A stretch of DNA of 64,000 bases, from positions 114,681-178,680 of the forward strand of contig JAZUEN010000020.1 of the NCBI GenBank assembly GCA_045640185.1, read 5' to 3'. The DNA comes from Bacteroidales bacterium (GTDB lineage Bacteria; Bacteroidota; Bacteroidia; Bacteroidales; SZUA-534). Made by a program: the position numbers and the translations under genes. This document shows positions 6,724-52,003 of the stretch, one piece after another. How positions within the stretch are numbered: the stretch's first letter is position 1; the number at the start of each line of letters is the position of its first letter. The notes under the pieces were generated by a model. That model saw nothing but the letters and a program-made list of their open reading frames with translations, did no database searches and was not told where the DNA came from.

Positions 6724-6818
6724 TTCCTTACTTTTTTTGGTTTTCTCTTCACAATGATGCGTCATTGCAAAAAGGTTGCAGATAAAATTCCGCTTTCGAC
6801 CAAAAAAAAGTACAAATG

Positions 6819-14483: not shown

Positions 14484-14581
14484 AAAGCACGCAATCGAAT
14501 TGATAATTAGACCTTTAACACACATACACGATAGCCAAAGCCACATCTGCCCACACTCGACCCTTAATTCACAATTAGCAT

Positions 14582-14589
14582 TATCTTTG
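14582..14589 (+). promoter_or_regulatory. Bacteroidota -7 promoter box (TATCTTTG)
   Basis: It matches TAnnTTTG and lies 25 nt upstream of the ATG at 14614. Confidence 0.5.
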
Positions 14590-14613
14590 CAGAAACAAAA
14601 AAACATCAGCCGT

Positions 14614-15294
14614 ATGGATATGCATTTCAAAAGAATATTCATTTTGGCCCTGACAATATCGGCTTCTGCAATGTCGTTTGCGCAAGAGGCATTGGGCGAA
14701 TTCAGCAAAATCAGGGTTCAGGGGCGCATCGAGCTAAGCATAAAATATGGACAGCCTAAAGGCATTTCGGTCAATGCCGACGACAACCTTAAACAGGCCG
14801 TTCAGTACAGCGTGGCCGACGGTTGCCTCGACATAAAGGCGCAGCAGGCGATACCACGAGGCACAATGGTAGTGGCAGTGGTCTCGTGCCCGACAATCAG
14901 CGAAATAGAGATTGGCGGTGGCGCAAGATGCTTCAACAGCGGAACCATCAAAGAGCCCACACTGACACTAATTGCAGGCGCCGCAACCGAATTCGACCTG
15001 CTTGTCGATATCGATTCAGCTTCAGTCAAGGTGATGCGAGGCGGATTTGCACGCCTGACAGGCAATGCACGCTCAGCCTACATCAAGACCTCGACAGGAG
15101 GCTCGTATGTGGCCGACGAAATGGACTGCAAGACACTTGTCGCCGACATGAACGGCGGAGGAATCGCACGTGTCAAGGTCAGCGAAACCATCAATGCCAA
15201 CCTGGCGCCAAAAGCGAGAATGATCTACGTCGGCTCGCCAAAAATCATCGAAACCGAAACATCAAAGGGAGAAATAACCAACGAAGAGGATTGA
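14614..15294 (+). CDS. DUF2807 / head GIN-domain (putative auto-transporter adhesin head) protein
   Basis: Signal peptide [24 protein letters not shown]. Repeated beta-solenoid-like rungs follow (...[13 protein letters not shown]..., ...[14 protein letters not shown]..., ...[11 protein letters not shown]...). The start was moved to 14614 on the basis of the signal peptide and promoter box. Confidence 0.6.
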
Positions 15295-21789: not shown

Positions 21790-21880
21790 ATTGTCAGTTT
21801 TGAAACAGTCGCTAATATAGCAAATAGGAACGAATGGAATGTCAACAAAAGAAGAATGACGATGCCTCAAAAAAAACATA

Positions 21881-22027
21881 GGTGAATTGACTGAGCAAAG
21901 AAGCAGTGCGGACACTGCGGCTGAGTAGAGGTCAGCTAGATGCCGACAAAATCCAAAGGCACACAAAAGATTGAAGAATAGGCTCTATTTGAGAATTTTA
22001 ATAATCGGGGATTTTACAGAAGTCCCC
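21881..22027 (+). repeat. Intergenic repeat family, copy B (5'-truncated)
   Basis: The 26-mer CAAAGGCACACAAAAGATTGAAGAAT is identical to copy A, and GCAGTGCGGACACTG is shared. The terminal hairpin GGGG-N13-CCCC is at 22007-22027. Confidence 0.8.
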
Positions 22028-22035
22028 TATATTTG
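22028..22035 (+). promoter_or_regulatory. Bacteroidota -7 promoter box (TATATTTG)
   Basis: It matches TAnnTTTG, lies directly after the copy-B hairpin, and is 19 nt upstream of the ATG at 22054. Confidence 0.5.
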
Positions 22036-22053
22036 CATAAACAAAAAAAGGAC

Positions 22054-22752
22054 ATGTTTGGACTACCTACAAGCCTTCAACAATCGGACGACACCGAGCT
22101 GAAGGAAATAATGAAAGAAACCATAATGTTCCAAAACGGCACAACCGCAAGCCAAATGGCCAAATCGGGAGTGCACGGGAACATGAATTATGGCGTATCG
22201 GTCACCGACATTCAGCGCATATCCGCCAAATACGGGAAGAACCACCAACTGGCCCAGAGGCTATGCCGGCTAAACATTCGTGAGGCAAAATTGCTCGCTT
22301 CTAGGCTATTTGTCGCATCCATGCTGACTGACAGCGACTTGCAAAACATCTTCGACTCAATTGCAAATATTGATTTGGCAGAGAACCTTGCGCGAAACAT
22401 TATTTGCGAAATAGACGACATCAAATTCATCGAGCAGCTAGCCAATGGCAATGTGTGGCAGACGGTATCGGCAATTCTCGCCATTGACTGGGCCATAATC
22501 AAAAAAATGCCTCACTCGAACCGTCTTGCCACTTGGTTCATTGAGCATCTCCAAAATCTGGCAGAAAAGGAACTGCCCGAAACCCGGCGACCAATACTTA
22601 TCGCCATGGAAGACTTTGCCAAATTGCCAAACGGATACGGCCCCCGGATTGCCGACTGCGCAAAACGGATGGCATCTTCTTCTTCCGATTTTTGCAAGGA
22701 AATTGGCGAACGGCACCTATGGATGCTGAACACTGACAATAATTCAATATAA
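22054..22752 (+). CDS. DNA alkylation repair protein-like (AlkD-type HEAT-repeat) protein
   Basis: All-helical repeats. The block ...MNYGVSVTDIQRISAKYGKNHQLAQRLCRLNIREAKLLASRL... resembles the DNA_alkylation family. This is called by eye only. Confidence 0.5.
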   Translation: MFGLPTSLQQSDDTELKEIMKETIMFQNGTTASQMAKSGVHGNMNYGVSVTDIQRISAKYGKNHQLAQRLCRLNIREAKLLASRLFVASMLTDSDLQNIFDSIANIDLAENLARNIICEIDDIKFIEQLANGNVWQTVSAILAIDWAIIKKMPHSNRLATWFIEHLQNLAEKELPETRRPILIAMEDFAKLPNGYGPRIADCAKRMASSSSDFCKEIGERHLWMLNTDNNSI

Positions 22753-22796
22753 TTTACGCAACTCGGATAATTTGTCACACACCGATTACGTTATCT

Positions 22797-31110: not shown

Positions 31111-31524
31111 TTATCGCTTTTTATCCTTGCTGTTCTTTTGTGGCTTTGTCAAGGCACCATCCTCAATGCTTTCTTTTGTCGAAATGGCGCTTTCGCTTTC
31201 GACTTCCATCTTTGTCAACTTCTCGATGACACTGTTGTATATGTTTTCGTAATCCGATACATGGTTGCTGTAATACTTCATGGTATTTAGGAACTGCTTT
31301 GGCGTAATGCCGTATTTGTCCAGCACGTACCCATATGCACCTTCTATCTTTTCGCGGTCACGGTCAATTCGATATCCGGTTATCGACAGGTAACCATCGG
31401 TAAGATGTATGTCGACAAGCACGTCGACAAGCTTGTCTTTTTTGATTTCTGGGCGGTCGCCTTCTTCGCGCGTGCAGCATTGCAATGATAAAGCCAACAC
31501 TATGAGTATGAAAAATCGGTTCAT
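31111..31524 (-). CDS. DUF4296-like lipoprotein
   Basis: Signal/lipobox [17 protein letters not shown]. The block [18 protein letters not shown]...[20 protein letters not shown] is typical of DUF4296. The start is at ATG 31524. Confidence 0.55.
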
Positions 31525-31611
31525 CAAAAGTCTTTTTTCGGAATAAAATACAAACGCTATTATATGGCAATTGTTGCCAAGATGCAAGAGTGCCATGCCA
31601 AAAAAAATAAA

Positions 31612-31778: not shown

Positions 31779-31841
31779 CATGGCGATTAATAGAAGTTCA
31801 TTAAACAACGGCCACCTTTTTTCGAGGTGGCCGCCGTTTGC

Positions 31842-32795
31842 TTATCTAATCTTTCTCTTCGATTTCGATTTTCTGATGTCCTCAAACTTGACCCCCAACA
31901 TTATTTCGTGGGAGCCATTGCTTGCCGAGCTCAATTTCGATATTGTAACATCGTATGAGTAGCCGATGTTAATCATGTCGTTATAGTTGTAGCCGACAAA
32001 CGCGATGATTGCTTCAGGATTCTTGAAATTATAGCGGAATCCGAGACCACCCCAAACCATTTTCTGGTATATCACACGGCAGTTGATATCGGTCATAAAG
32101 TCGTAATGAGGCACCGTCTTGATTAAGATGGATGGCTCAAGGTCGAAATTACGGTCGATGTTATACTTGTAGCCACCTTGAATATAGAAGTGCGGCTTGA
32201 CACGCGCATCCTTTACGATATAATCGTCGTCGTACTTGTCGAGCAACGACATGTTGTTGAAGAACAAGTGGTTGAAGGATATGCCTGCATAATACTGCGA
32301 AGTGTAGAGGTAAACACCCAATGACCCGTCGGGATACACCTTCTTGTAAACGGTATTTTGGAAGCCGTCTTCACCTTCGTTGAGCTCAACGTTGATATCT
32401 GTCAAGTCGACTTTCTGTTGGACAACACCTACAAACAAACCTGCAGAAATGCGGATGTCGCCGCTTATACGCAAGTTGTAGCTGTAAGAGCCGTAAGCTC
32501 CCATATTCCCGATTGGACCGGTAACATCGTTAAAGATGTAGCCACCATAGCCCATAGGCAACACCTTATGCGGACCATATCCACCTAGCATGTATGTCTG
32601 TGGAGCGTCTTTAACGCCAGCAAACTGATAACGGTAGTTTGTCTTAATCTGCCAATAGTCGTTTGTACCGCCAATTGCAGGGTTTAACACATACTCGTTA
32701 AACATGTACTGCGAGAACTGAGGCAGCAATTGTGCTTTGGCACTTGGAGCTATAAGTAAAGCTCCTGCAAACAAGGTTAAAATAATCCTCTTCAT
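31842..32795 (-). CDS. sprF: Type IX secretion system membrane protein PorP/SprF family
   Basis: Signal peptide, then the family-defining N-terminus QLLPQFSQYMFNEYVLNPAIGG. It is a roughly 317-aa beta-barrel-like protein lying 7 nt downstream of the type-B CTD cargo gene. Confidence 0.8.
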   Translation of the reverse strand: MKRIILTLFAGALLIAPSAKAQLLPQFSQYMFNEYVLNPAIGGTNDYWQIKTNYRYQFAGVKDAPQTYMLGGYGPHKVLPMGYGGYIFNDVTGPIGNMGAYGSYSYNLRISGDIRISAGLFVGVVQQKVDLTDINVELNEGEDGFQNTVYKKVYPDGSLGVYLYTSQYYAGISFNHLFFNNMSLLDKYDDDYIVKDARVKPHFYIQGGYKYNIDRNFDLEPSILIKTVPHYDFMTDINCRVIYQKMVWGGLGFRYNFKNPEAIIAFVGYNYNDMINIGYSYDVTISKLSSASNGSHEIMLGVKFEDIRKSKSKRKIR

Positions 32796-32802
32796 AGCTG
32801 TA

Positions 32803-33085
32803 TTACCTTAAAATTGTAACGGGTCCTGTAGTCTTCTTTCCACCTAGCACATCATCGCTACACTGGATGACGTAGTAATATGTGCCTGACGGAACCGGTT
32901 TGTCCTTTTCGTTTCTGCCATCCCATTGGTTTGCCGAGTAGTCGCGGCCACTTCCTGAGTACTGCCATACACGGCCACCCCAACGGTTGAATACATAGAT
33001 TGTAACTTTATCGTAAGATGACAAACCTTCAATTCTCCAGATATCGTTATGCCCATCGGCGTTAGGAGTGAACACCTCTGCCGGC
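32803..33085 (-). other. T9SS type-B (gliding-motility-associated) C-terminal sorting domain of the giant adhesin
   Basis: The last roughly 93 aa are EVFTPNADGHNDIWRIEGLSSYDKVTIYVFNRWGGRVWQYSG....ANQWDGRNEKDKPVPSGTYYYVIQ. Confidence 0.8.
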
Positions 33086-36000
33086 CTTATGCCGTTAAGA
33101 GAGTTGAGTCTGACGCTATCGTAGTAGTAGCATACCAATGTGGTATCGATGCTATATACGTTGAATGCCACGCTGTCGCGAACCTTAATCATCAGGTTGC
33201 CGTAAGGCTGTACTGCGATTGGATTGTCATTGAGTGTGCTCTCTGGCTTGATGCCTGCATTTGACGATTTGTCGTCAACTGGAGCGGCACCCCAAGTCCA
33301 ACCATTTTCAACATATATTGTCTCATTGAAATCAAATTCCAAATCATTGGCGTCAAGCTGTATCCTTGCGCCTTCAGCCACTTCGTAAACTCCATCTATC
33401 AGCAAGTCGCCAGGCCCTGCATCATCCATGGAGATGGTAGCCCTCAACTTGTAAACAGGGTTCATTGCAGTTGCCTTGATAGAATCGATATCCATACAAA
33501 TTCCATCTTTAGCCATGAAGTAGTAGTATGTTTCTGTTCCGTATGGCAAGAAGTTGTCAACCCAGCCTTTTTGTCCAGCACTTACGTTGTCACCCTCGCC
33601 AAACACTACATAAACTACGCCTCCAACTGTATCGAGCTTGTATTTAGGCGTTTCAACAACAGGGACAATCACTGTCGTGTCAACGCTGGCGGAATCGCCA
33701 GATATCGAATCGGCCGCATAGCGTATAGTCCTGAACCTGTTGATGTAAGCTAATGTCGAATCGGCAAATGTCGAATCAATGACAGTAGTGTCGGCAGGAG
33801 CAGGAGCTGTATCTACCGGTGAAACTATTGGCAATTCGGCTGGTTCTGCATTTTCGTCGTAAGCGGCATAGAACCTATAGCTGAATGGGGTGCTTGCTGT
33901 TACAAAAGCCGACAGCTCATTGTCAGGACAAGTGTAAACTGAAGTCTGGTTGTTGCCATTCATGTAGAATGCCGCTTCAGTGATACTAAAGTTGCTCTTG
34001 CTTGCAACTGTAGCTGTAAACTCTTGTGGACAAACCATGTCCTCGCCATAACCGACAGTTACTGTATATGTACCTGCCTCCAATCCCTTAAATACACCGG
34101 AATTATTAGGCTTCGATTCGCCGATTTTGTACCACAAATCATCAAGAGTTGTAGACTCCGAAGATGTAGAAAGAACTGTTTCCGATACTTGAGAGAATAC
34201 AAACGGATTAATCATGGCTTCCAGTATTATACCTCCATCAAGTGCCAACGTTCCATCTGCCTTCATGTTCAAGCAAGATGCATCAACAATTGAATCGCTA
34301 ACGGCAAAGCTTGGATAACGTGAACCTACAACAATATCAATAGGATCACTTTGGCAACCACCGTTATTCTCTTCAACTATGACTGAATACTTGCCCGAAG
34401 CAATGCCACTCAATGTTATTGGTGAAGCCTTGCCTTTAATGTCGAATATGCTGTCACCTACAAGGCAACTCTCAATATCTCTGCCTCCACATATAGAATC
34501 CAATGTTATAGTTGCTTCATTAGATGCCGAGCACATTGCACTTACAATATCTGTTATTTCAAATGTTATTTTATCTGGTTGAGTTACAACGAAAGTATCC
34601 ATCCTGACGCATGACGAGTCATCGACTACCTTGACAGAATATGTTCCGGCTTGCAACCCTGATATGCTGTTTGTCGAATCCCCAGTGCTCCACAAATACT
34701 TGAAATTAGTGCCATTCTTGCTTGTTGGACTCAAAGCAATTCCACCTTCTGGAACCTCAAAGCACCTCAAATCTGTAACCCCTGCATTTAAGACGAAATT
34801 CGAATTGTCAGGTATGCTGAAAATGCTATCCTGAACACACCCCTTATCATCTACAATGCGTAATTTATAGTTGCCAACTCCAATTCCTGATAGAGTGACA
34901 CCATTGTCAGAGTTCTTCACGGAGTCGGCAGTCCAAGATTCATTAGAGAAATTATATGTGAATGGCGCTTTGCCACCAATAGTTTTCAGGATTCGGATTG
35001 ATCCATTTGCAACATGGCAGTCTGAACCATCTGTAACAAACATTGTAGATATTCTATCTGATGGCTGTTCAACAAACAACGAATCAGTTATGCTTGCCCT
35101 TCCTTGGCGTTGCGATATGGTAAACACATACCATCCACCTTGAAGGTTTTCGATAGAGGCTGTCGTTGCTACAAAATCAGCAGGCCAATTGGCACTTGTC
35201 CACTTATATTGATAACCTTCGTAGTAGCCACCGACACCAACCACCTCAAGTGCGCCATTATTGCCACCGAAGCAAATGTTAGGCACGTTTTTGACAACTT
35301 GATATAGCAAAGGACGATGTTCAACGGCAATTGTCGTATCTACAGAGCAACCTGACAGATTTTCGTCTTCAATATGCAATGTATAGTAGCCTTCACAAAG
35401 CTTATTTATGGAAGTGGTTGTTTCTGTGTCATCACTCTCGATAGCGTTGCCATAGACATCACTCCATGCATATGAATAGTTGCCGATTCCGCCTGCAACC
35501 GAGACTACAAGCTCACCGTTGCAATTTGAATCTCCTCCATTTAGGTCAGGATAGTTTGCTACATTAGCGACACGCAATGCAAGCTCGTCAGTAATTACAA
35601 CTTCTTTAACCTTGCGACAACCATCCTGGTTTATTACAGTTACTGTATTTGTACCCAAGCACAAGCTGTTGGTGAAGCGACCATTATCGTTAGGATCGTT
35701 ATTCCAAATGAATTGCAAATTCGAGTCGTCGTCGTAAACATTGCCCGCGTCATCAAAGACATAACCTATGGTTGCCGAACCGGTGCAATAAGAAGCGCAT
35801 GGCACTGGAATAATATTCTTGATTTGGAAATCAAGTGTGCCATTATCATTAATCTCAATAGTATCGGCCACCGAGCATCCAAGTGCATCGATTATTTCCA
35901 ACCGATATATGTCGACACCCAAGTTGCTTGGATTAGCTTCATATGACACAATGTCATCACCAGTAAGTGTGCGCCAATAGTATGAATACTGCCCTACACC

Positions 36001-39000
36001 ACCTTCGACTGTTACTGATGCAGTACCCGTAGCGTCACCACAATCAGACTCGGTAGTTTTGACTTCTACAATCTTCAATGTGTCAGGGTTGACAATTGTC
36101 ACAGTGTCGAATGCTGAACATCCGTTTGCATCGACCACCATAACGTTGTATATGCCCTCGCCAACATTGGAAACGATAGAATCGTTTGAAACTACATAGC
36201 CTTCGCTATACCAAGTATAGACTAAGCTTCCTGAACCTCCGGTTGCCGTAGCATAGAATGATGCTTCAGTGTCACCAGCGCACCGGATTGGTTTGCTGAA
36301 TACTATAGATGGAACAATTGCGTCAGGCTGTTCAATTGTAAATGTCTCTGCTATCTGGCAATTTGATGTCAGGTCGGTAACGGTTACGGAATAATCGCCA
36401 GCCTGCAAGTTTGTTGCCGTGCTTTCGGTAGCTCCATTTGACCAAGCAAATGCGTAGTTGCCTGAACCACCATTTACTGCAAGAGCGACGCTACCTGAAT
36501 TGTCGTTATAGCATTCAAGGTTGTTTACCGTAGCTGTTACGTCCAAGTTAGATTCATCAACCATGGTAACATCATATGCTTCACTCTCGCATTCATTGCG
36601 ATCGACAATGACAGCCTTGTAGTTGCCGGCACCTACTTCTTCGAATGGGTTGTCCATACTTATATATACCAATGTTGAACTTACAGACTCAAACCACATA
36701 ACATCGTATGGCGCATTGCCTCCCTTAATATTAACAGCCTCTAACACACCAGTGTTGACTGAACACCCAGAAGGTGTCATAATGAAATCTGCAGTGATAG
36801 GCGCAGGTTCGCCAACTGTTCCACTAATTGTAGATTCGCAACCATTAGCATCGTAAACGGTAACCGTATATGTTCCTGCAGCAAGACCTGTGGCCTTTGC
36901 ATCCGTGCTTCCGTCGTGAGCCCATGAATAAGTGTATGGCGCAACACCGCCACAATCGGTAAGGTCAGGTTCCAAAGTGCCATCGGCTGAACCAGGGCAC
37001 TTGGCATCCACTGGAATCATTCTCTTAACCTCGAACTTGTCGACACCACCCACAATGGCGGTCTCATTGATAGCGCAATTGTGCTCGTCTTCCACCTTGA
37101 CATAGTATGTACCCTTTGGCAAATTAGTCGGGTCTTCGGCAGTTGATACTTCCTCGCCTGCTTCGTTTGTCCAATAGAATGATGGCGTCCCGTAAGCGCC
37201 TGTCACTGTAATGTCGATTGCACCATCGAAATTGCATCCGTTGGTGACATTTGTTATGCCATCGACACTGACAGCCAATTCAGAATCGTTGTTGACAGTA
37301 ATTGTATCATAAGCCTCACACATATTGGCGTCAGTTACAATCACGCTATATACGCCCTCTGTCAATCCACTAACGGTAGCGGTTGTTGCACCATTGCTCC
37401 ACAAGTATGAATATGGCTCAACACCGCCGCTTACTGTCAATTCTATTGAGCCGTCGGATCCACCGCAAGATGCTTTTGTTACATCATCTGTAACCACCAG
37501 TTTTTGTGGTTCATCAAGAACAAGGCTATAGTCGGATGCCTGACATCCGTTGGCATCAACAACTAACAGACCATAAGAACCGGCCTTAAGGTTTTCAGCA
37601 GAAGACTCCTCTGAAATAACGATGTTTTCTGCATCGACCCAAGAATAAGTGAAGTCTGCCATGCCACCCTCAACAACTACTGATAATGATCCGTTGTCGC
37701 CACCATTGCAAAGGATATCTTTTTTAGTTATGGTAAGAACCATTCCTGCTGGCTTGGTTGATACCAATGTATCGATTGAACATCCATTGGCGTCTTCAAT
37801 ATGGACCATATAGTCATCAGATGCAAGACCGGTAGCTGCTCCGTCAACAAATAAAGCAGTCGGGCAAGTAACATAATAAGGCTCAACACCGCCACTCAAC
37901 GCGAATGTTATAGAACCATCTACACCGGTACAGCTTGATATTGTAACATCGATATTGTCAATATTCAAAGCAGATGCGGGTTGAGAGATCTCAACTGTAT
38001 CCATAGACCAGCATGAATTTTCGTCTGTTACTTTTACGATATATGTGCCAGCAACCAAATTATCAATATCCTTTGTATTTAAAGTATCTACTTCATTCCA
38101 TTCATAACTGTATTCACCAACACCTTGTGTAGCAACAACTGATGCAGAACCATCGTTGCCACCGTAGCACATTACGTCGGTACCAGTAGCGTTAAGCACG
38201 ATTGGATCTGGAGAAAGGACTGTTATTGAACCTGACGCTGTGCAACCATAACTATCAGTAACGGTTACTGTGAAATCGCCGGCGCAAAGGTCAACAGTAT
38301 CTGTTCCCATTATTGAAGGATCGCTCCAAACGAATGAGTTAAACTCGCCTGAACCACCAATAACATTGACAACGGCGCGTGCATCACAAGTGCCGTAGCA
38401 ACTTGTGCGCAAACCCATAGGAACTATATAACGTGTTTCTCTGTGTGCCAAAATAGGATTACTTATTGTCTTCGAGTCAAACATTATTGTCTGCATTACG
38501 CCCTGACGGTTAATGTCGGTAAATGATATTGTCGCTCTTGTAAGAGTACCTACCGCATCGCCAAATACACTCTTTGCCACAACAGACCATCCGCCCTCAG
38601 CAGGATCCTTGCCATATATGTTTGTCCATTTAGCGGCATCAGTAATGTCAAATGTCCCTGTATAAGGTGCGGTCAAGGCTCTTAAGTCAAGTGCGGTTTC
38701 CGATTCGGTGGAGAATTTCAAGCCATCCATCGTCTTGTTTCTCATTACCGGACTAGCTGAGCCAGCAATGTCTTCACGATGGTTATACAGTTTCACCTCA
38801 GTTCCGTCTGGAGATACCAGATAAAAACCTACATAACCAAAATGTTCGTGAGTTAGCCACAATGAGACTTCAATCTTTGTGGATTCAGAAATAAGGAATG
38901 GAGTGATACTGCCTATTGCAACGCCCATTTCCGGATTGATTGTCAATACAACATCGTCGAATGCCGAACCGCAAGACATGCTTTGGGCTTCCATCGTAAG

Positions 39001-42000
39001 AGTTGCTGTTCCATTTGTAAGGTCATTAGCACCCGGAGTGTATGTAGGATTCAGTGCGTATTTGTCGTCAAATTCACCATCACCACTCGTGCTCCAAACT
39101 ATCGAGCTGTAGTTTTCTGCAGTTGCATCGGCCAATGTGTAATCAGAAGCATAGCAGACTACAGCATCGGCACCGGCAAATGCGCTTGGTCCCTGAATGT
39201 TTTCCACTGTTATGTCTTTAGTTGCTACACAGCCATTAGCATCGGTAACTGTATAAGTAAAGCTGTAAGTTCCTGCAATTGTACTTTCAAAAATCGGGTC
39301 GATGACATCGGTAGCCGAAAGGTTTGCAACGTCGCCTGTCCATGCATGAACATAAGGTGTCGCACCGCTTGTTACATTGCCGTAAAGCACGACGTTGCTG
39401 TTAGTGCAGCTGTTCATGTCGGCCAAGCCGATATTTGGCAAAGTGTTCACCATTACTACGTAGTCAGTAGCAGTGGCGGCCGAGCAACCATTGTCATTGG
39501 CATAGCTTACGCTGATGGTTTGGCTTCCTGCTGAAGTCCACTCAACAGTTACTGATGCAGTTTCTTCGCCACTGATAATGTTACCACCAGCTATTGTCCA
39601 CATGTAGCCTGTCATTCCAGTTTCAGTAGTGTAAGTCTGAACTGAATTCAAGCATACAGAATTTTCACCAGCTACAGTTGGAACTGGCAATGGGTTGATT
39701 GTTATTGTTTTAGTGCTAGTGACAGGAGTTGTGCAAGGTGCATTTGGATAGGCCGTCAAAGTAAGAGTCACACTGCCTGCCGCAATGTCTGCACTTCCAA
39801 TATTGTAAGTCGGGTTAAGTACACTTGCATCTGCAAAAGAACCATTCCCGTTTGATGTCCAAAGCAACGATGAATAGTTGACCGCACTAGCGTCATCAAC
39901 TGTATATGATGCCTGATCGGCGCAAATCGCGTCAGTGGCACCAGCGTCAACTATAGGCTCCTCAACAAATGTAATAGAAGCCTCGGCGTAATCATTGCAA
40001 CTGCCAGATTTTTCGGTCAAACGGACTGTGTAAGTGCCACCAGCCGTAGCTATAATGTCAGTGGTTGGTTTGTCTGGGTCAGAGAATGTGACAGCGTCGT
40101 TGCTGCTCCAATGCATTTCTGAACCCGAAACAGTTTGTACGGCAGTTGCATTGTATGTGAGTCCGCAAGCAGTTGCATCTGCAATTGCTGGTGCAGGAGT
40201 ACCATTAACTGTTAGCACCATCGACTTGGCACCATTTGTATTGCAACCTCCAACAGGAGTTGCCGTCAGAGTAACATTATATGGAGTTGTCTGATTAACT
40301 GAAGTATAGGTAACTGTAGAAGTTGTTCCAGCCAAACTTGCAGTTCCAAGAGAACCGAGAGAACCCGACATTGACCATGATACATTGGTGCAATGTGCAA
40401 TATCGGCGCTAATAGTGTAAGAATCGCCAGCACAAATTTCATCAGCCAACGAACTTAGCGTAATGGAAGGCTCTGCATTGAACTTTATGTCAATTGTTGT
40501 TGAACCTTCGCAACCATTTGCAACTTCAATGAGTTTAAATGAATAGACACCCTCTTGAGGTACAGTCACATTTGTGTGGCTTCCAGTTTTTGGGCTTATA
40601 GTTGCAGTACTTGGACCGCCAATCTGTTCCCAACTCAATGTGCCACCATACGATGCATTTCCAGTCAATGCATTTGTGAATCCGCATACATCGGCACCTC
40701 CTGCCGAGATGATTTCAGGAACAGGAGTTGGAGTAATAGTGAGCACCATTTCATCTGTTGCGTCACCACAATATTGATGATGAGTAGTTACTATAAGAGT
40801 TACAGTTCCTGCAGCAATTTCTGTTGCACTAGGAACATAAACTGGCTGTTCCATGGAATTCGTATAGAACGAGCCAGAGCCTGTAGATGATACCCAAGTG
40901 GTCGGATTTACTGCAATTGGTTCATCATTATGAATAGACGCATCAGACAAGATATATTCGCCATCACTTGCACAGATAGTTGCATCTGCACCTGCAAAAG
41001 CAGATGGAACTTCATAGAAAATCATCGTCTTCTCCGTATAATTTGAACAACCATTGAATTCTTCAGTGAAACGTATTGTATATGAGCCTTTGGCTGTTAC
41101 AATGATATTTGTGTTTGCATCGTTTGCATTGCTGAACGATGCGCTACCACCTGTTGGAGTACTTACTACCGACCAAGTACGAGTAGAACCAGCAAGAACA
41201 TTGCTTGCCGATATTGACTGAGTAAATCCGCAATTGGTTTCATCTGCAACTATTCCAGGATTTGGAGTACGCGTTACGGTGAGTAACATTTCATCAACTA
41301 CAGCGCCACAAACTGGCGAAGATGGAGTGCCTGTCACCAAAATCTTATAATCCTTTGAATCAATGCCATCTGGCAATACTGGAGTGAATTTCACATTTGC
41401 GCCAGTTGATGGAACAAATGTTCCTTCCCCCATTGACACTGCCCATGAAATTGCCTTGCAGTTATTTGCAGTAGCCTTTAGCTGATATGGATCGGCACTG
41501 CAAGTGACATCATTTTCTATTCCAAGTTCAATGCTTGGGGCTTCATTGAATGTTATTGCCACAAACGCGGGTAATGCGTTGGTGCAACCATTGCTGGTTT
41601 CTACCAATTGGAAAGCATAACTGCCTGCCTGGTTCACCTCAACTTTTACGGAAGTCTGAGTCAGTTCACTGAATGTCGCGTTCCCTGGACCTGTTTTCTT
41701 GCTAAAGAATAGGTCAGAACCTAATAACGCATTATCAATGGTAATTGTAGTTTCGAGTCCGCAAACCGATGAAAGCGCGCTCAACGATGGATTTGGAACT
41801 TGACTTACCGTAAGATTATATGTGTCGGATGGATGTTCGCTTGCACAAGCTCCGCTTCCGTGTGCTGTAGCTGTAAGGACTATTGTTTTGCCCTGGTCGC
41901 TTGGTGCAGGAGTATATGTTGTAGATGTGCCTGTTGCAGGGCTAAATGTACCATTGCCACCTGTCCACGTAATGTCAACAACATTGCTGGATGCAGTCAG

Positions 42001-44661
42001 ACTTATTTTTTCACTACCACATATTGTCTTGTCAGCGGTAATAATGTCGATTGTCGGCTCATCGTAGAAATCCAGTGTCAAATCACCAGACTCTGTTGAA
42101 CAACCAGCACCTGTTGTCTCTATAAAATAGAACTTGTATTCACCTGCTTGAGTTGCTGTGACATCGGTTGTTGCCGAAGTTGCATCTGCAAATGTAGCAG
42201 AACCACCACTGCGGGTGTACCATTTAATTGTATTGCCAGTTGCCACATTTGCGCTAATGGCTTTAGTCATGCCACAAACATCGCCGTCAGCTGTTACCAA
42301 AACTGGAGTTGGTGCGGCGTCGACTGTTACGTTCAGTGTCTTAACGTCTGGCGAGCATACTCCATTTCCGTTTGCAGTCAATGTTATTACTGCCGTGCCA
42401 GAGAATCCTGCATTTGGCGTGAATGTAGGAGCTAACGAAGTTGCGTTGCCCAATGTGCCATTTGTGCAGCTCCATGCGAAAGAACTGTAATATTCAACAT
42501 TTCCTGATAAATTAAGAGTTGCATTGTTGCATAAAGTAGTGGCACCTGTGTTTATTGTAGCCACCGGACTATGATATAGCGATACATTCACATTCGAGCT
42601 GTAACCTTCACATCCGTTGGCATTGGTTTCCTTTACTCTAAAGGTGTATGTTCCATCGGCATATACAGTGACATTAGAGCCTGAAAAATCAGCTCTACCT
42701 GGTCCGCTTACAAGCTCCCAAACCATTGTTCCGTCTTGCGATGCTGTTGCCTCAAGGGTTGTTGACCAGCCACAAACTTTACTGTTATCGGCTGTAGTTA
42801 CAGTTGGAGCAGGTGTGGTATAGAATGTCAATACCATTTCATCATCAACCGGATCGCAACCCGCAAGTCCTTCAGCAGTGAGTTTCAATGTTACGAAACC
42901 TTGTGTACGGTCAGCGCTAGATGGATTATATGTTGCATTCAGCGCGTTGCCGTTGGAGAAGGTTCCTGTACCGTCTGTTGTAGTCCATTCTACTGATTGA
43001 TAATTGCTGGCCGAACCATTTAATGTATATGAAATTTCAGTTTCGCACATTCCGCCATCAGCTCCTGCGTTTGCAACAGGCGCCGGATTAACCTCGATTG
43101 TCTCCGTATTTGCTATGGAAGGGCATCCCTTGCTGTCTTTTACGACAACTGTATAATAGCCCTCAGGCAAATTTTCTATGACATTTGTTTCACTGTTGTA
43201 TTGAATACCCGAAGTTGTATGTGTTGCAATATATGATGTATATATGCCAGTGCCACCTGTAGGAGTTACTGTGATTACGCCACTTGCCTCACCTTCGCAA
43301 GTCTCTGTCGATGCAAGCGTTGTGGTAATTTGTTCAAATGGGTAAACGTAATTAGAGTATTCTGGGAACTCGGACCAGTACTGAAATTCTATGGAGTTTT
43401 TACATCCATTTGCATCAGTTGCATAAATATCGACTTGTGAACCATCAATGAGATTTTCAAGATAGTCATCAGTGCCAAGTTCACCTTGCTCATACTCATC
43501 CCAAAAATAAGTATACGGACCAGTACCGCCAGTGGCACTTGCCTGCATTTTCTTTATAGGCTCACCAAAGCAATCCGGTTCATCTACTACTATAGCCTCA
43601 ACTTTAATAGGACCAGGCTCCAACACTGTTATTTCCTTTACGTCGCTTAATTGCGATGGCTTTCCATTAGGGCACCAAGCAACTCTATACTTACCTGCTG
43701 TACGGTTTCCTATTGTGTATGTTTTCTGTGAAGGAGCGATGCCTTGGCCGACTGGATTGGCAATTAGGTTCATGCCGTCTTGCCTGTACAGATATACATC
43801 GTAATATTCCGTCATGCCAGAAAAAGTTATTATGATTTCACCGTCATCATGAGTACCGCTGTCATTGGTATTACAAGAGACAGGTTCTTGACTTACAACG
43901 AAATCTGGACTCTCTCCAACCTTGCTTGCCGAGCGACCTTGCCTGATTACATCACCCAACTTGACATTTCCGTATATCGACAAATTGCCAGAGACTCCGT
44001 CCAGCATTGTCAGATCGGCATTGCTGGCATCGACTATTGATGCGCTGTTGTTCAGCAGTGTCTGCCATTTATCGTTGACATCAATTTTCGAGGTGCCGAA
44101 ATCAACCTCGACAACATTGTCACTATTGCTTATCAAATTCTCGCAAGCGATTGAGTTGCCGTTTGACTTGAAAGTTCCGTTATTGATTGTCAAGTTGCCA
44201 GTTGTGGTCAAATCCGACAACAATGTCCAATTGCCACCATCAATAATAATGTCGGCATCGAGTGGCGCCGCAAGGTTTATCGTCTGGTCGCCATCGGTAG
44301 CCAGAACCAAATCGCCACGCAACTTGCCGAAATCGACATTGGCATCGACGTTGACTGAGCCTGCAACCGTTATGTCCTTTTTGCCAGACACCGTGAATGT
44401 GGCATCCTGCGCATCAAGGCTATTGACATACGCCGGCTGGTTAACTTTGACCGTATTCTGACTGTCACTGAACGAATTTTGGTCGAACACGACATTAGTG
44501 TTCTGGTCTGGGACAGTTGCACCTGGAGTGCCACCTGACACTGTTGACCAGTGACTTTGGTCGGACCAATTGCCGCTACCATTCACCCAAAATCTCGACT
44601 CTTGACCAAATAGCTGTGATACAGCTAACAAAATCGATAAGGTTAAAATTTGTCTCTTCAT
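32803..44661 (-). CDS. Giant (3,952 aa) SprB-like cell-surface adhesin, T9SS type-B cargo
   Basis: Signal peptide MKRQILTLSILLAVSQLFGQ. It has about 20 SprB-type repeats (C.GG.(D/N)GS......GG..PY.Y.W ... V.D.NGC) and the C-terminal type-B sorting domain VFTPNADGHNDIWRIEGL...VTIYVFNRWGGRVW......WDGR.....PVPSGTYYYVI. A single uninterrupted ORF. Confidence 0.9.
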   Translation of the reverse strand: MKRQILTLSILLAVSQLFGQESRFWVNGSGNWSDQSHWSTVSGGTPGATVPDQNTNVVFDQNSFSDSQNTVKVNQPAYVNSLDAQDATFTVSGKKDITVAGSVNVDANVDFGKLRGDLVLATDGDQTINLAAPLDADIIIDGGNWTLLSDLTTTGNLTINNGTFKSNGNSIACENLISNSDNVVEVDFGTSKIDVNDKWQTLLNNSASIVDASNADLTMLDGVSGNLSIYGNVKLGDVIRQGRSASKVGESPDFVVSQEPVSCNTNDSGTHDDGEIIITFSGMTEYYDVYLYRQDGMNLIANPVGQGIAPSQKTYTIGNRTAGKYRVAWCPNGKPSQLSDVKEITVLEPGPIKVEAIVVDEPDCFGEPIKKMQASATGGTGPYTYFWDEYEQGELGTDDYLENLIDGSQVDIYATDANGCKNSIEFQYWSEFPEYSNYVYPFEQITTTLASTETCEGEASGVITVTPTGGTGIYTSYIATHTTSGIQYNSETNVIENLPEGYYTVVVKDSKGCPSIANTETIEVNPAPVANAGADGGMCETEISYTLNGSASNYQSVEWTTTDGTGTFSNGNALNATYNPSSADRTQGFVTLKLTAEGLAGCDPVDDEMVLTFYTTPAPTVTTADNSKVCGWSTTLEATASQDGTMVWELVSGPGRADFSGSNVTVYADGTYTFRVKETNANGCEGYSSNVNVSLYHSPVATINTGATTLCNNATLNLSGNVEYYSSFAWSCTNGTLGNATSLAPTFTPNAGFSGTAVITLTANGNGVCSPDVKTLNVTVDAAPTPVLVTADGDVCGMTKAISANVATGNTIKWYTRSGGSATFADATSATTDVTATQAGEYKFYFIETTGAGCSTESGDLTLDFYDEPTIDIITADKTICGSEKISLTASSNVVDITWTGGNGTFSPATGTSTTYTPAPSDQGKTIVLTATAHGSGACASEHPSDTYNLTVSQVPNPSLSALSSVCGLETTITIDNALLGSDLFFSKKTGPGNATFSELTQTSVKVEVNQAGSYAFQLVETSNGCTNALPAFVAITFNEAPSIELGIENDVTCSADPYQLKATANNCKAISWAVSMGEGTFVPSTGANVKFTPVLPDGIDSKDYKILVTGTPSSPVCGAVVDEMLLTVTRTPNPGIVADETNCGFTQSISASNVLAGSTRTWSVVSTPTGGSASFSNANDANTNIIVTAKGSYTIRFTEEFNGCSNYTEKTMIFYEVPSAFAGADATICASDGEYILSDASIHNDEPIAVNPTTWVSSTGSGSFYTNSMEQPVYVPSATEIAAGTVTLIVTTHHQYCGDATDEMVLTITPTPVPEIISAGGADVCGFTNALTGNASYGGTLSWEQIGGPSTATISPKTGSHTNVTVPQEGVYSFKLIEVANGCEGSTTIDIKFNAEPSITLSSLADEICAGDSYTISADIAHCTNVSWSMSGSLGSLGTASLAGTTSTVTYTSVNQTTPYNVTLTATPVGGCNTNGAKSMVLTVNGTPAPAIADATACGLTYNATAVQTVSGSEMHWSSNDAVTFSDPDKPTTDIIATAGGTYTVRLTEKSGSCNDYAEASITFVEEPIVDAGATDAICADQASYTVDDASAVNYSSLLWTSNGNGSFADASVLNPTYNIGSADIAAGSVTLTLTAYPNAPCTTPVTSTKTITINPLPVPTVAGENSVCLNSVQTYTTETGMTGYMWTIAGGNIISGEETASVTVEWTSAGSQTISVSYANDNGCSAATATDYVVMVNTLPNIGLADMNSCTNSNVVLYGNVTSGATPYVHAWTGDVANLSATDVIDPIFESTIAGTYSFTYTVTDANGCVATKDITVENIQGPSAFAGADAVVCYASDYTLADATAENYSSIVWSTSGDGEFDDKYALNPTYTPGANDLTNGTATLTMEAQSMSCGSAFDDVVLTINPEMGVAIGSITPFLISESTKIEVSLWLTHEHFGYVGFYLVSPDGTEVKLYNHREDIAGSASPVMRNKTMDGLKFSTESETALDLRALTAPYTGTFDITDAAKWTNIYGKDPAEGGWSVVAKSVFGDAVGTLTRATISFTDINRQGVMQTIMFDSKTISNPILAHRETRYIVPMGLRTSCYGTCDARAVVNVIGGSGEFNSFVWSDPSIMGTDTVDLCAGDFTVTVTDSYGCTASGSITVLSPDPIVLNATGTDVMCYGGNDGSASVVATQGVGEYSYEWNEVDTLNTKDIDNLVAGTYIVKVTDENSCWSMDTVEISQPASALNIDNIDVTISSCTGVDGSITFALSGGVEPYYVTCPTALFVDGAATGLASDDYMVHIEDANGCSIDTLVSTKPAGMVLTITKKDILCNGGDNGSLSVVVEGGMADFTYSWVDAENIVISEESSAENLKAGSYGLLVVDANGCQASDYSLVLDEPQKLVVTDDVTKASCGGSDGSIELTVSGGVEPYSYLWSNGATTATVSGLTEGVYSVIVTDANMCEAYDTITVNNDSELAVSVDGITNVTNGCNFDGAIDITVTGAYGTPSFYWTNEAGEEVSTAEDPTNLPKGTYYVKVEDEHNCAINETAIVGGVDKFEVKRMIPVDAKCPGSADGTLEPDLTDCGGVAPYTYSWAHDGSTDAKATGLAAGTYTVTVYDANGCESTISGTVGEPAPITADFIMTPSGCSVNTGVLEAVNIKGGNAPYDVMWFESVSSTLVYISMDNPFEEVGAGNYKAVIVDRNECESEAYDVTMVDESNLDVTATVNNLECYNDNSGSVALAVNGGSGNYAFAWSNGATESTATNLQAGDYSVTVTDLTSNCQIAETFTIEQPDAIVPSIVFSKPIRCAGDTEASFYATATGGSGSLVYTWYSEGYVVSNDSIVSNVGEGIYNVMVVDANGCSAFDTVTIVNPDTLKIVEVKTTESDCGDATGTASVTVEGGVGQYSYYWRTLTGDDIVSYEANPSNLGVDIYRLEIIDALGCSVADTIEINDNGTLDFQIKNIIPVPCASYCTGSATIGYVFDDAGNVYDDDSNLQFIWNNDPNDNGRFTNSLCLGTNTVTVINQDGCRKVKEVVITDELALRVANVANYPDLNGGDSNCNGELVVSVAGGIGNYSYAWSDVYGNAIESDDTETTTSINKLCEGYYTLHIEDENLSGCSVDTTIAVEHRPLLYQVVKNVPNICFGGNNGALEVVGVGGYYEGYQYKWTSANWPADFVATTASIENLQGGWYVFTISQRQGRASITDSLFVEQPSDRISTMFVTDGSDCHVANGSIRILKTIGGKAPFTYNFSNESWTADSVKNSDNGVTLSGIGVGNYKLRIVDDKGCVQDSIFSIPDNSNFVLNAGVTDLRCFEVPEGGIALSPTSKNGTNFKYLWSTGDSTNSISGLQAGTYSVKVVDDSSCVRMDTFVVTQPDKITFEITDIVSAMCSASNEATITLDSICGGRDIESCLVGDSIFDIKGKASPITLSGIASGKYSVIVEENNGGCQSDPIDIVVGSRYPSFAVSDSIVDASCLNMKADGTLALDGGIILEAMINPFVFSQVSETVLSTSSESTTLDDLWYKIGESKPNNSGVFKGLEAGTYTVTVGYGEDMVCPQEFTATVASKSNFSITEAAFYMNGNNQTSVYTCPDNELSAFVTASTPFSYRFYAAYDENAEPAELPIVSPVDTAPAPADTTVIDSTFADSTLAYINRFRTIRYAADSISGDSASVDTTVIVPVVETPKYKLDTVGGVVYVVFGEGDNVSAGQKGWVDNFLPYGTETYYYFMAKDGICMDIDSIKATAMNPVYKLRATISMDDAGPGDLLIDGVYEVAEGARIQLDANDLEFDFNETIYVENGWTWGAAPVDDKSSNAGIKPESTLNDNPIAVQPYGNLMIKVRDSVAFNVYSIDTTLVCYYYDSVRLNSLNGIRPAEVFTPNADGHNDIWRIEGLSSYDKVTIYVFNRWGGRVWQYSGSGRDYSANQWDGRNEKDKPVPSGTYYYVIQCSDDVLGGKKTTGPVTILR
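34250..38405 (-). repeat. Array of about 18 SprB-type repeats (protein-level tandem repeats)
   Basis: Each recurrent unit of about 75-85 aa starts with a Cys-Gly-rich strand (CYGGNDGSASV, CNGGDNGSLSV, CGGSDGSIEL and others) and ends with V.D.NGC. Two further units lie near the N-terminus (about 43100-43600). Confidence 0.75.
38515..38885 (-). other. Proprotein-convertase P-domain-like module embedded in the adhesin
   Basis: KIEVSLWLTHEHFGYVGFYLVSPDGTEVKLYNH...KWTNIYGKDPAEGGWSVVAKSVFGDAVGTLTRATISF follows the P-domain pattern (H.y.gDL...L.SP.GT...L ... G..p.G.W.L.v.D......G.L..w.L.F). Confidence 0.55.
38925..43090 (-). repeat. Strictly alternating two-module (type I / type II) Ig-like array, about 7-8 dyads
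   Basis: Type I is A(G)AD..IC....Y.L...A.NYSS..W...G.G.F......LNPTY.P...D...G.VTLTLTA.....C.....D...LTI.P.P. Type II is ......VCG....L.A.......W....GPG.A.FS.........V......G.Y.F...E....GC........V.F...P. The two types alternate without exception over roughly 1,380 aa. Confidence 0.7.
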
Positions 44662-50662: not shown

Positions 50663-52003
50663 TTACAACTTAAAAATGATGGGAATAGTATATGAAACAT
50701 TTACGGCCTTGCCACCTTGCATGCCTGGCTTCCATTTTGGCAATAACGAAACGACTCGCAAAGCCTCGTTGTCAATACTCTCGAATCCAGTACCTCGGGC
50801 TAATTTCACATTCGTGACATTGCCTTCATTGTCAATAACAAACGAAACATATGCCCTGCCTTGAATTCCCTTTTCTTTCGCGTCCTCAGGATATTTGACA
50901 TTCTCAGCAATATACTTGCGCAATGCCAATTCGCCTCCTGGAAATTCTGGCATATTTTCCACAATTATAAATATAGGGGCTTCCGGTTCTTCTAGCGTTT
51001 CTTCATTATCATCAATCTCTAGTACCGTAATTTCCTCGTTTTCATTATAAGCGGCAATGCCTGACGCAGAATCATTTTCGATAAATTCAAAATTTGTCTT
51101 ACCTTCGGCCATTGAATAAGACGAGTTAGCAAATGCAATCATAGCAAATGCGGCGACTGGAAGGATGTAAAGCGCCTTGGCCTTCATCCAACCTGATGAT
51201 TTTTTACGTGACATCATAGTTATTCGATATTTAAGTTTACTGTGATTGAAGCTGTTGGCAATAGAATACCACTTCCCGCCAGCAGCTTTCTTAATTAATA
51301 ATATTTGATATTGTTTTGCATTAATGCCTGAATCAAGAACAGCCTCGTCGGCCTCGTACTCGTGAATGGCGCACAGTTCGCGACGCATCAGCCACATTGC
51401 GGGATTAAACCACTGCAAGCAGCAAAGCACATCGCACACCATAATATCTATTGAATGGCGATAGCGGATATGAGCCTGCTCGTGGGTAAGAATCTCATGC
51501 CGGCTCTCTTCGTAGTCAGTCCGATTCATAATGATGTACCTAACCCAGCTGAACGGCGCCTGCTTGCCTTCAACTATTACCAAGACGTTGCCATTTGGCA
51601 ATTCGTGGCGTTCACCACTGCCGATGAGCCTCAACACACTGACGATTGACAGCAACATCCGCATCAGGCACACAACAATGCCCGACACATACAGCAATTC
51701 AGCCAAATAACGCCAATTGACCGTCGATTCGGCAACCGTATCGCCACCAACAATTACTTCCTGCAACATCACCACCGATTGTGCAATGGCGAAATTGCCG
51801 CTTGCGGAAGAAGACACACTAAATGTCAATCCGCAGAAAGGCAGGACAAACGACAATGCTATGGTACCCAAAACCACCACTCGGTTGGCGCGATGAAACG
51901 TCTCGCGACTCATAAAAGATTTGTACAATAGATAAAATGCTATCAGAACGACTGACACCTTTAAACTATATGCTATTGTTTCCATAATTCTACTTTTCTT
52001 CAA
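50663..52003 (-). CDS. BlaR1/M56 family peptidase-sensor fused to a TonB C-terminal domain
   Basis: 4 TM helices, the zinc motif ILTHEQAHIRYRHS (HExxH), and the C-terminal TonB-C block PEFPGGELALRKYIAENVKYPEDAKEKGIQGRAYVSFVIDNEGNV.NVKLARG......DNEALRVV...PKWKPG...GKAV.V.YTIPI.F. Confidence 0.85.
   Translation of the reverse strand: MKKSRIMETIAYSLKVSVVLIAFYLLYKSFMSRETFHRANRVVVLGTIALSFVLPFCGLTFSVSSSASGNFAIAQSVVMLQEVIVGGDTVAESTVNWRYLAELLYVSGIVVCLMRMLLSIVSVLRLIGSGERHELPNGNVLVIVEGKQAPFSWVRYIIMNRTDYEESRHEILTHEQAHIRYRHSIDIMVCDVLCCLQWFNPAMWLMRRELCAIHEYEADEAVLDSGINAKQYQILLIKKAAGGKWYSIANSFNHSKLKYRITMMSRKKSSGWMKAKALYILPVAAFAMIAFANSSYSMAEGKTNFEFIENDSASGIAAYNENEEITVLEIDDNEETLEEPEAPIFIIVENMPEFPGGELALRKYIAENVKYPEDAKEKGIQGRAYVSFVIDNEGNVTNVKLARGTGFESIDNEALRVVSLLPKWKPGMQGGKAVNVSYTIPIIFKL

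Follow-up and report, generated by a model that had tools for sequence, protein, structure and literature searches.

An 11.9-kb gene and its PorP/SprF-family neighbour probably encode a giant cell-surface fibre and its dedicated carrier in a ruminant-gut Bacteroidales bacterium

Introduction

Giant fibres that a type IX secretion system (T9SS) exports are among the main means by which the Bacteroidota touch surfaces, prey and partners. What is known of their mechanism rests almost entirely on a handful of aerobic gliders and a single oral pathogen. In this report, we consider a stretch of 64,000 nucleotides (nt) from a Bacteroidales bacterium (assembly GCA_045640185.1, contig JAZUEN010000020.1, positions 114,681 to 178,680), hereafter “the window”. 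In it, a gene for a protein of 3,952 amino acids (aa), the fibre gene, is followed directly by a gene of the PorP/SprF family, the carrier gene. An important question regarding this locus is whether the two genes build a fibre at the cell surface and, if so, whether that fibre would be held in place or driven along a gliding track.

We found that the pair is a type-B T9SS cargo and its cognate carrier, a well-known secretion pair rather than a new system. The two genes probably act as one unit that encodes a giant fibre of the cell surface and its own carrier. The host is an uncultured, ruminant-gut, Salinivirgaceae-like member of the Bacteroidales. The fibre, if expressed, is a good candidate for attachment to rumen plant particles or to other microbes.

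Results and Discussion

A type-B cargo and its cognate carrier

A preliminary description of the locus, made from the sequence of the window, had proposed a single uninterrupted open reading frame (ORF) for an SprB-like T9SS cargo with a PorP/SprF gene 7 nt downstream. The ORF list and its translations confirm this arrangement (Table 1). The C-terminal sorting domain (CTD) of the fibre scores above the cut-offs of both models of the type-B domain, namely PF13585 (CHU_C; 74 bits, cut-off 27, aa 3861-3937) and TIGR04131 (57.6 bits, cut-off 35, aa 3862-3951). The assignment as a type-B cargo, which had been staked on this result beforehand, thus stands. The downstream protein is likewise a member of the proposed family, with 221 bits against PF11751 (PorP_SprF; cut-off 22.3) and 234.3 bits against TIGR03519 (cut-off 90.55) over aa 1-304. 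Among the sequences of the PDB, no relatives of the carrier or of the fibre’s C-terminal region were found.

A terminator-like hairpin follows the carrier gene, and a 325-nt gap separates the fibre gene from the gene upstream of it, which encodes a tetratricopeptide repeat (TPR)/SpoIIE phosphatase; these two features suggest that the fibre and carrier genes form a two-gene unit. The hairpin, a putative terminator with a GC-rich stem, is the strongest between positions 31000 and 45100.

Table 1. Coordinates of the fibre gene, the carrier gene and their parts (positions in the window)
Feature	Position	Strand	Residues or length	Details and basis
Fibre gene	32803..44661	-	3,952 aa	ATG start; no internal stop (ORF list, translation)
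Sec signal peptide	44602..44661	-	aa 1-20	MKRQILTLSILLAVSQLFG then Q; predicted cleavage exposes Gln at +1
N-terminal all-beta cap, solenoid-like	44122..44601	-	aa 21-180	AlphaFold 2 (AF2) and conservation; proposed distal end
Hypervariable tip-adjacent region	43648..44121	-	aa 181-338	Orthologue comparison; low AF2 confidence
Two SprB-type repeats	43084..43647	-	aa 339-526	In-house repeat hidden Markov model (HMM)
Alternating immunoglobulin (Ig)-like array, (A-B)x6-A-X-Y-A	38929..43083	-	aa 527-1911	Identity matrix; GhpA-stem homology
P-domain-like junction module	38473..38928	-	aa 1912-2063	PF01483, partial profile
SprB-type repeat array	33910..38472	-	aa 2064-3584	16-18 repeats, degenerate toward the end of the array
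Unique region U, lineage-specific	33082..33909	-	aa 3585-3860	About 276 aa, non-repetitive
Pro/Ala/Thr linker, sequon-rich	33622..33813	-	About aa 3617-3680	Inside region U
Type-B T9SS CTD (CHU_C/TIGR04131)	32806..33081	-	aa 3861-3952	
Intergenic spacer, fibre gene to carrier gene	32796-32802		7 nt	Carrier gene downstream
Carrier gene, PorP/SprF family, outer membrane	31842..32795	-	317 aa	PF11751 and TIGR03519
Polybasic periplasmic C-tail of carrier, Cys-free	31845..31883	-	13 residues	EDIRKSKSKRKIR
Terminator-like hairpin	31809..31833		10-bp stem, 7 G-C pairs	Starts 8 nt past the carrier stop codon

Architecture of the fibre

The domain order was derived by profile iteration within the fibre protein, followed by a pairwise identity matrix. 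It essentially bears out the order given in the preliminary description, including a P-domain-like module, an alternating two-module array of about 1,380 aa and two plus about 18 SprB-type repeats. The predicted signal peptide has a hydrophobic core and reads MKRQILTLSILLAVSQLFG followed by QE. A Gln at +1 after cleavage is the Bacteroidetes Q-rule (PMC5837995). The motif LFGQE(S/T)RFWV around the end of the signal peptide is kept in orthologues.

The alternating array measures 1,385 aa and holds 16 domains (8 A, 6 B, X and Y). A-type domains are mutually 18-42% identical and B-type domains 24-41%, as against 6-27% between A and B. Module A matches no Pfam family, B matches Ig_7 and PKD weakly, and X matches PKD_6. 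Cysteines are spaced regularly through the array, at about two per Ig-like domain. The P-domain-like module scores above the cut-off of PF01483 (P_proprotein; 21 bits) both in the whole protein (24.1 bits) and as an excised piece (27.2 bits), with the match spanning aa 1929-1964 and 37 of the 86 profile positions. PF13573 (SprB) recognizes the fibre in 8 stretches with 175.5 bits (cut-off 28). Past the P-domain, 16 SprB-type repeats are found at a domain E-value of 1e-4, and 18 with partial matches counted. A region of about 390 aa before the CTD had been described as non-repetitive; a unique region does exist there, yet it is truly about 276 aa long, and the remainder (aa 3423-3584) consists of two degenerate SprB-like repeats.

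Tandem Repeats Finder detected no DNA-level repeats in the fibre gene, and as protein the repeats are 6-42% identical. The repeats are thus old, and a recent repeat expansion is ruled out. Two profile matches were set aside as spurious, namely one to the 53-BP1 Tudor domain (zero qualifying stretches) and a sub-threshold internal match to the type-A model Por_Secre_tail (PF18962).

Homology to GhpA and the orientation of the fibre

When the whole fibre was compared with PDB sequences by phmmer, a single protein was matched, GhpA (9flp_A, E = 1.5e-73). The match comprises 16 stretches of the stalk, all within aa 492-1860 (the A/B array), and one weak match in the CTD; nothing in the SprB-type array or the N-terminus was aligned. 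Nor did fibre aa 1-490 align, in a sequence comparison only, with GhpA residues 26-1040, which hold the hook module. GhpA (grappling hook protein A; 5,898 aa) comes from Aureispira sp. CCB-QB1 and is a T9SS substrate whose distal hook is formed by an N-terminal adhesin-like module and whose stem consists of 52 Ig-like repeats (bioRxiv 10.1101/2024.01.29.577165). Its CTD lies at the outer membrane, above the PorP-like GhpB and the PorE-like GhpC; its domains are joined by inter-domain disulfides, and those of the stem are glycosylated (bioRxiv 10.1101/2024.01.29.577165). Further, type-B cargo remains attached to its PorP-like carrier (PMC9143113; PMC12635249).

The GhpA precedent and the published binding of CTDs to carriers together place the CTD-adjacent region U near the membrane, and the N-terminus of the fibre would be its distal end. 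This reverses the preliminary description, in which the region next to the CTD was the membrane-distal, ligand-binding tip. The N-terminal 340 aa are likely the part that contacts a ligand. If the dimensions of GhpA (240 nm for 5,898 aa) can be scaled to the present protein, then the extended fibre would be about 150-180 nm long.

These considerations lead us to propose the following route. Sec would take the 3,952-aa protein to the periplasm, the T9SS would recognize its type-B CTD, and the fibre would be passed to the dedicated PorP/SprF-family barrel that is encoded 7 nt downstream. The CTD would stay bound to the barrel, anchoring the fibre in the outer membrane. Outward from the membrane would follow region U with its sequon-rich linker, 16-18 SprB-type repeats and the P-domain junction, and then the 16-domain array of the GhpA-stem type, two SprB-type repeats, the hypervariable segment and the all-beta cap. 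The family memberships, the domain order, the conservation and the homology to GhpA on which this proposal draws are observed; how the fibre is exported, which end points outward and how long it is are inferred.

The likeness to GhpA raises the possibility that the fibre, too, is a multimeric grappling hook, whose rigid stalk, built from several parallel protomers, would snare other cells or particles in order to prey on them, to scavenge or to form consortia. GhpA and its partners (GhpA/GhpB/GhpC; PDB 9FLP and related entries) provide the only solved structure with sequence homology to the fibre; this homology, between the GhpA stem and the A/B array, is significant. In both proteins, moreover, a non-repeat module at the N-terminus is followed by a long Ig stem and then by a T9SS CTD, and a PorP homologue is encoded downstream; the two cysteines or so per Ig-like domain recall the inter-domain disulfides of GhpA. 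The homology, however, is limited to generic Ig repeats, and the N-terminal module is not detectably related to the GhpA hook. The repeat period in GhpA is about 3 domains (roughly 249 aa), whereas the A-B period is 2 domains. Half of the stalk, at its C-terminal side, is of the SprB type, and stalks of this type are monomeric and flexible, as the authors of the GhpA study suggest (bioRxiv 10.1101/2024.01.29.577165). No homologue of ghpC, which encodes a PorE-like protein, is linked to the genes described here, the gene past the carrier being one for a DUF4296 lipoprotein and not of the PorE/OmpA-like kind, and the GhpA-homologous array is devoid of the glycosylation motifs discussed below, whereas the GhpA stem is glycosylated. 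Taken together, these differences make a multimeric hook, such as the heptamer that GhpA forms and that acts in partnership with a type VI secretion system (T6SS), improbable here, and we retain the carrier-anchored fibre as our preferred reading.

The N-terminal cap and region U

An N-terminal beta-helix had been suggested for the fibre. The AF2 model of the N-terminus gives aa 21-180 an all-beta fold with many short strands (predicted local distance difference test (pLDDT) score of about 80), and confidence falls to a low level at aa 181-338. No Pfam family matches the cap, and a Foldseek comparison of its model with the PDB gave no significant match (best E = 2). The top matches in that comparison, although not significant, are mostly beta-helix proteins (tapirin, EspC, an antifreeze protein and phage tailspikes). 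Thus the all-beta character of the suggestion stands in the model, the specific fold lacks a significant structural match, and a beta-helix is plausible for the cap.

Structure prediction had been proposed for region U also. It was productive for the N-terminus but not here, as the AF2 model of U has a pLDDT of about 23. Region U has no Pfam match and no relative among PDB sequences. It also had no match in a word-index search of a protein database, which is weak evidence given that the index returned only short fragments for giant proteins. The same search never returned the orthologues of about 3,900 aa, which are in the same collection.

Putative O-glycosylation sites divide the fibre

The O-glycosylation motif (sequon) of the Bacteroidota is D-(S/T)-(A/I/L/V/M/T) (PMC8550257). 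Its distribution along the fibre is strikingly uneven. There are no sequons in aa 1-2063, where 12.4 +/- 3.3 would be expected; each of 2,000 shuffled sequences (2,000/2,000) had at least one. This part contains 125 Asp residues and only 7 D-S or D-T dipeptides. By contrast with the expected 10.8 +/- 3.1, there are 29 sequons in aa 2064-3860, of which 17 (9.0 expected) fall in the SprB-type array at aa 2064-3584 and 7 (0.7 expected) in the linker at aa 3620-3700; none of 1,000 shuffles reached 7 in the linker. Most orthologues (L007-L026) have the same N-to-C gradient, and their linkers, variable in length, also carry D-S/D-T motifs. If the system operates as in other Bacteroidota, then the proximal half of the fibre would be glycosylated and the distal, GhpA-type half would not. 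By eye, many of the sequons in the SprB-type repeats belong to a D-T-hydrophobic motif that recurs toward the repeat’s end.

Conservation among orthologues and within the species

The orthologue set comprises 23 loci, gathered by a scan of one genome per species. The closest of them, with carriers 91-96% identical to the present one, are from ruminant and other metagenome-assembled genomes, and the labelled ones are “Salinivirgaceae” from buffalo, yak and sheep. More distant loci (carrier 59-74%) derive from horse faeces, groundwater and other metagenome-assembled genomes. An identical carrier protein is present on seven metagenome contigs, its neighbours unchanged. A 480-kb contig (k141_1057584 of ENA ERZ27247192) matches the window at about 99% identity.

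In each of the 23 related genomes, the carrier gene is preceded, at 7-84 nt, by the end of a very large ORF. Module profiles show that the orthologues follow the plan N-S-(A-B)n-A-X-Y-A-P-Sm-U-CTD, in which n and m vary between species. There are about 2 to 6 A-B pairs and 10-17 SprB-type repeats after P, with up to about 27 such repeats in the most distant loci, and complete orthologous fibres have about 3,057 to 3,952 aa. The P module stands at the junction between A/B and SprB-type repeats in 15 of the 15 orthologue sequences that are long enough to include it. The composite stalk, part GhpA-type and part SprB-type, is therefore conserved, and nothing in it departs from the known logic of cargo and carrier. 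In one distant groundwater orthologue (L026), about 12 tandem modules of the X type (PKD_6-like) before the P-domain replace the A/B array.

The degree of conservation is graded along the system. Against the rumen species, the carrier is 91-96% identical, in the range of RuvB (92-95%) and ValS (89%, one locus); the CTD follows at 74-83%, and the P module at 31-61%. The repeat stalk is 28-40% identical across these species (72% in the nearest, L007). The cap (aa 21-180) exceeds the stalk, with 53-62% in the rumen species where it was detected and 38% in the distant locus L024. Past about aa 160 the alignment breaks down, and similarity in aa 181-338 was found in only 1 of 16 orthologues. Region U retains 39-57% within the rumen clade; in the horse-gut orthologue only part of it matches, at 30%, and it is absent from more distant orthologues. 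Measured against non-essential neighbour genes, whose identity is 42-66%, the fibre diverges rather fast and the carrier is under unusual constraint. This gradation fits a conserved anchor that bears a diverging, exposed fibre. For an outer-membrane barrel, conservation at the level of RuvB and ValS is unusual.

Within the species, comparison with a contig that is about 99% identical revealed 27 differences over the last 9,990 nt (3,330 codons) of the fibre gene, 19 synonymous and 8 non-synonymous. Because most of these are synonymous, we take the fibre gene to be under purifying selection within the species. The same numbers, which cover all but the first 620 aa or so, argue against a fibre that is hypervariable from strain to strain; its divergence lies between species. 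The divergence from the co-specific contig is uneven. It amounts to 0.27% in the fibre gene, to 2-3% in parts of valS and to about 9% at 21842-22795, a DNA-alkylation-repair-like gene (L001 20001-20954), which suggests local recombination imports.

These data bear on the possibility that no stable surface structure is formed at all, the protein being secreted and shed or its gene no longer expressed. A promoter motif of the Bacteroidota type (-33/-7) was not recognized upstream of the fibre gene, a point in favour of this possibility. However, the 11.9-kb ORF is intact across strains and species and evolves under purifying selection, its cognate carrier is conserved at 91-96%, and type-B CTDs are retention signals in the cases that have been tested. 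We therefore regard a shed or silent product as highly improbable.

Relation to SprB/SprF and the tail of the carrier

The label “SprB-like” in the preliminary description is apt in part. Like the SprB/SprF pair of Flavobacterium johnsoniae, the locus encodes a giant repetitive protein with SprB-type repeats and a type-B CTD, with a PorP/SprF-family gene immediately downstream and Sec followed by the T9SS as the expected export route. The differences are considerable. SprB has 6,497 aa, and in the present fibre the N-terminal half of the stalk is of the GhpA type and a P-domain module lies mid-fibre. Upstream of the fibre gene lies the TPR/SpoIIE phosphatase gene, not sprC or sprD; the operon order in F. 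johnsoniae is sprC-sprD-sprB-sprF. As already proposed for the window, no spr or gld family was matched among its ORFs, nor in the 8-10 kb or so past each end that are covered by co-specific contigs; for SprC and SprD in particular, we know of no dedicated model in the libraries used. F. johnsoniae also differs in its setting, the present host being from an anaerobic, ruminant-gut lineage.

The tail of the carrier provides a further distinction. In SprF, the periplasmic C-tail has a Cys-X-Cys motif, unchanged among close homologues, which is disulfide-linked to Cys343 of GldK (PMC12635249). That disulfide is required for sustained helical movement, not for export or anchoring, and SprF keeps a weak, disulfide-independent contact with the gliding track (PMC12635249). 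The present carrier ends in a polybasic tail, EDIRKSKSKRKIR, in which no Cys-X-Cys motif occurs; its sole cysteine is residue 239, in the region of the barrel domain, and the tail is likewise free of cysteine in 22 orthologues. In those 22 orthologues, down to 59% overall identity, the tail motif DIR[KRQ]S[KG]S[KR]RKIR is near-invariant. The only orthologue with a different tail is L028, whose carrier is 40% identical. Such invariance implies that the polybasic tail may make a specific contact in the periplasm.

How common are such tails? An exhaustive HMMER search yielded 9,051 representatives of PorP/SprF clusters at E<=1e-3, and we classified the tails of the 150 nearest to the carrier. Only one is of the Cys-X-Cys type. 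Single-cysteine tails, mostly CPxxFW, account for 24 and cysteine-free tails of the PxxFW type for 23; another 14, including those of the closest relatives, are short and basic (DIK/DIR), 8 have long extensions, 71 are cysteine-free in other ways, and 9 are truncated. The carrier’s own tail type is common only to its closest representatives. The single Cys-X-Cys tail among 150, together with the cysteine-free tail of the carrier itself, indicates that the carrier is not a close relative of SprF and has no SprF-type disulfide. As the locus lacks both the Cys-X-Cys tail and the sprC/sprD context of SprB/SprF proper, we do not class the fibre as an SprB orthologue.

Some of the representatives, such as P0013, P0052 and P0084, have long periplasmic C-terminal extensions, and those of P0052 and P0084 contain Asp-rich, Cys-containing repeats that, by eye, resemble thrombospondin type-3 repeats. 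These extensions suggest that the C-terminus is the site at which members of the PorP/SprF family encode differing periplasmic attachments.

Static anchoring or movement?

Static type-B adhesins exist (PMC12618676). In the units Fjoh_3952/3951/3950 of F. johnsoniae and PG1035/PorP/PorE of Porphyromonas gingivalis, type-B cargo is held at the surface by a cognate PorP-like barrel, off the gliding track, and we judge such behaviour somewhat more likely for the present fibre also. Static anchoring, for adhesion or capture, thus has a slight edge in our estimation, and track-driven movement is the less likely mode, though one to be taken seriously. What mildly favours a static fibre is the cysteine-free tail of the carrier, which would form no SprF-type disulfide to GldK. 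For the same reason, this carrier is a convenient natural case for testing the recent proposal that type-B adhesins move or stay still according to whether a disulfide ties them to the track.

Several points weigh against our interpretation. First, two published indicators, the cysteine of the tail and a linked PorE-like gene, disagree. In F. johnsoniae, the gene of the static substrate Fjoh_3952 is accompanied by one for a PorE-like wall anchor, and those of mobile substrates are not (PMC12618676). The static units thus include or use a PorE-like, peptidoglycan-binding partner, whereas no PorE/OmpA-like gene was found in the two-gene unit or elsewhere in the window, and the lack of a linked PorE-like gene points toward mobility. 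Second, a cysteine occurs in the tails of just 25 of the 141 scorable representatives, such that its absence is weak evidence when taken alone, and our interpretation does not account for the periplasmic contact implied by the invariant tail. Third, no T9SS core gene lies within the window or the flanking 8-10 kb or so on either side. The strong constraint on the carrier, a protein whose only known role is in the T9SS, leads us to infer that the source genome has this core. Finally, neither the tip of the fibre, a candidate site for a ligand, nor region U has a confident structure.

The fibre might instead be this lineage’s functional equivalent of SprB, i.e., a gliding adhesin that propels the cell over plant fibre or mucus, with the carrier coupled to a GldK/GldJ/GldN track without a disulfide, for example via the polybasic tail. 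The SprB-type repeats, the type-B CTD and the adjacent SprF-family gene are all consistent with this idea, as is the resemblance of a unit without a PorE-like gene to the mobile substrates of F. johnsoniae. Further, the weak track contact that SprF retains without its disulfide offers a means of coupling, and the invariance of the tail in 22 orthologues points to a specific periplasmic partner. However, the tail has no cysteine, and Cys-X-Cys is needed for sustained movement; that motif occurs in 1 of the 150 nearest representatives, and the carrier is not close to SprF. Neither sprC, sprD nor any gld gene is nearby, and in the published view gliding was lost by the majority of commensals. On balance, a gliding role seems unlikely to us. 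A search of the literature on gliding or the T9SS in Salinivirga returned nothing usable.

Another possibility is that the locus exemplifies a third configuration of type-B fibres in gut and anaerobic Bacteroidales, one with neither a Cys-X-Cys disulfide to the GldK track nor a linked PorE-like wall anchor, in which the carrier would make a specific, non-covalent contact in the periplasm via its invariant polybasic tail DIRKSKSKRKIR. The stalk in this configuration would have two parts: distally, a GhpA-type half that is unglycosylated and bears a variable tip; proximally, an SprB-type half that is glycosylated. We advance this proposal as a doubtful one; the carrier-anchored fibre, with static attachment slightly preferred, is the reading that we adopt.

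Genomic surroundings

The locus is set among housekeeping genes (valS, ruvB, yidC and the dcw cluster), and there is no break in composition at it. It is a stable, vertically inherited part of the chromosome and not an island. A comparison with Rfam gave no match in the window.

The gene that follows the carrier gene encodes a DUF4296 lipoprotein (31111-31596, minus strand). In 23 of 23 related genomes it lies 3' of the carrier gene, 0-365 nt away. As listed, its ORF (161 aa) is probably 24 codons too long at the 5' end, and translation likely begins at MNRFF, ahead of a lipobox-like LSLQC. We considered this lipoprotein as a third component of the system and rejected it, viewing its position as conserved synteny and not as the mark of a T9SS partner. 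In three intestinal Bacteroidales, DUF4296 is an essential housekeeping lipoprotein encoded beside lspA (bioRxiv 10.1101/2025.10.10.681549). In addition, the nearest of the more distant carrier loci has another gene downstream, and the hairpin lies between the two genes. The three intestinal species just mentioned have, to our knowledge, no T9SS.

Three other genes of the window were noted. At 14500-15294 (plus strand), a 264-aa protein has a DUF2807 “putative auto-transporter adhesin head GIN” domain (107 bits) and is possibly a small surface protein. The 794-aa product of 4381-6765 (minus strand) probably resides in the outer membrane; it has an N-terminal CarboxypepD_reg domain and matches the model of an anammox S-layer glycoprotein weakly, far under the cut-off. 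At 50663-52003 (minus strand), a BlaR1-like M56 peptidase is fused to a TonB C-terminal domain; on co-specific contigs (L035 859-2641), a gene for a Penicillinase_R (BlaI-like) repressor lies beside this fusion.

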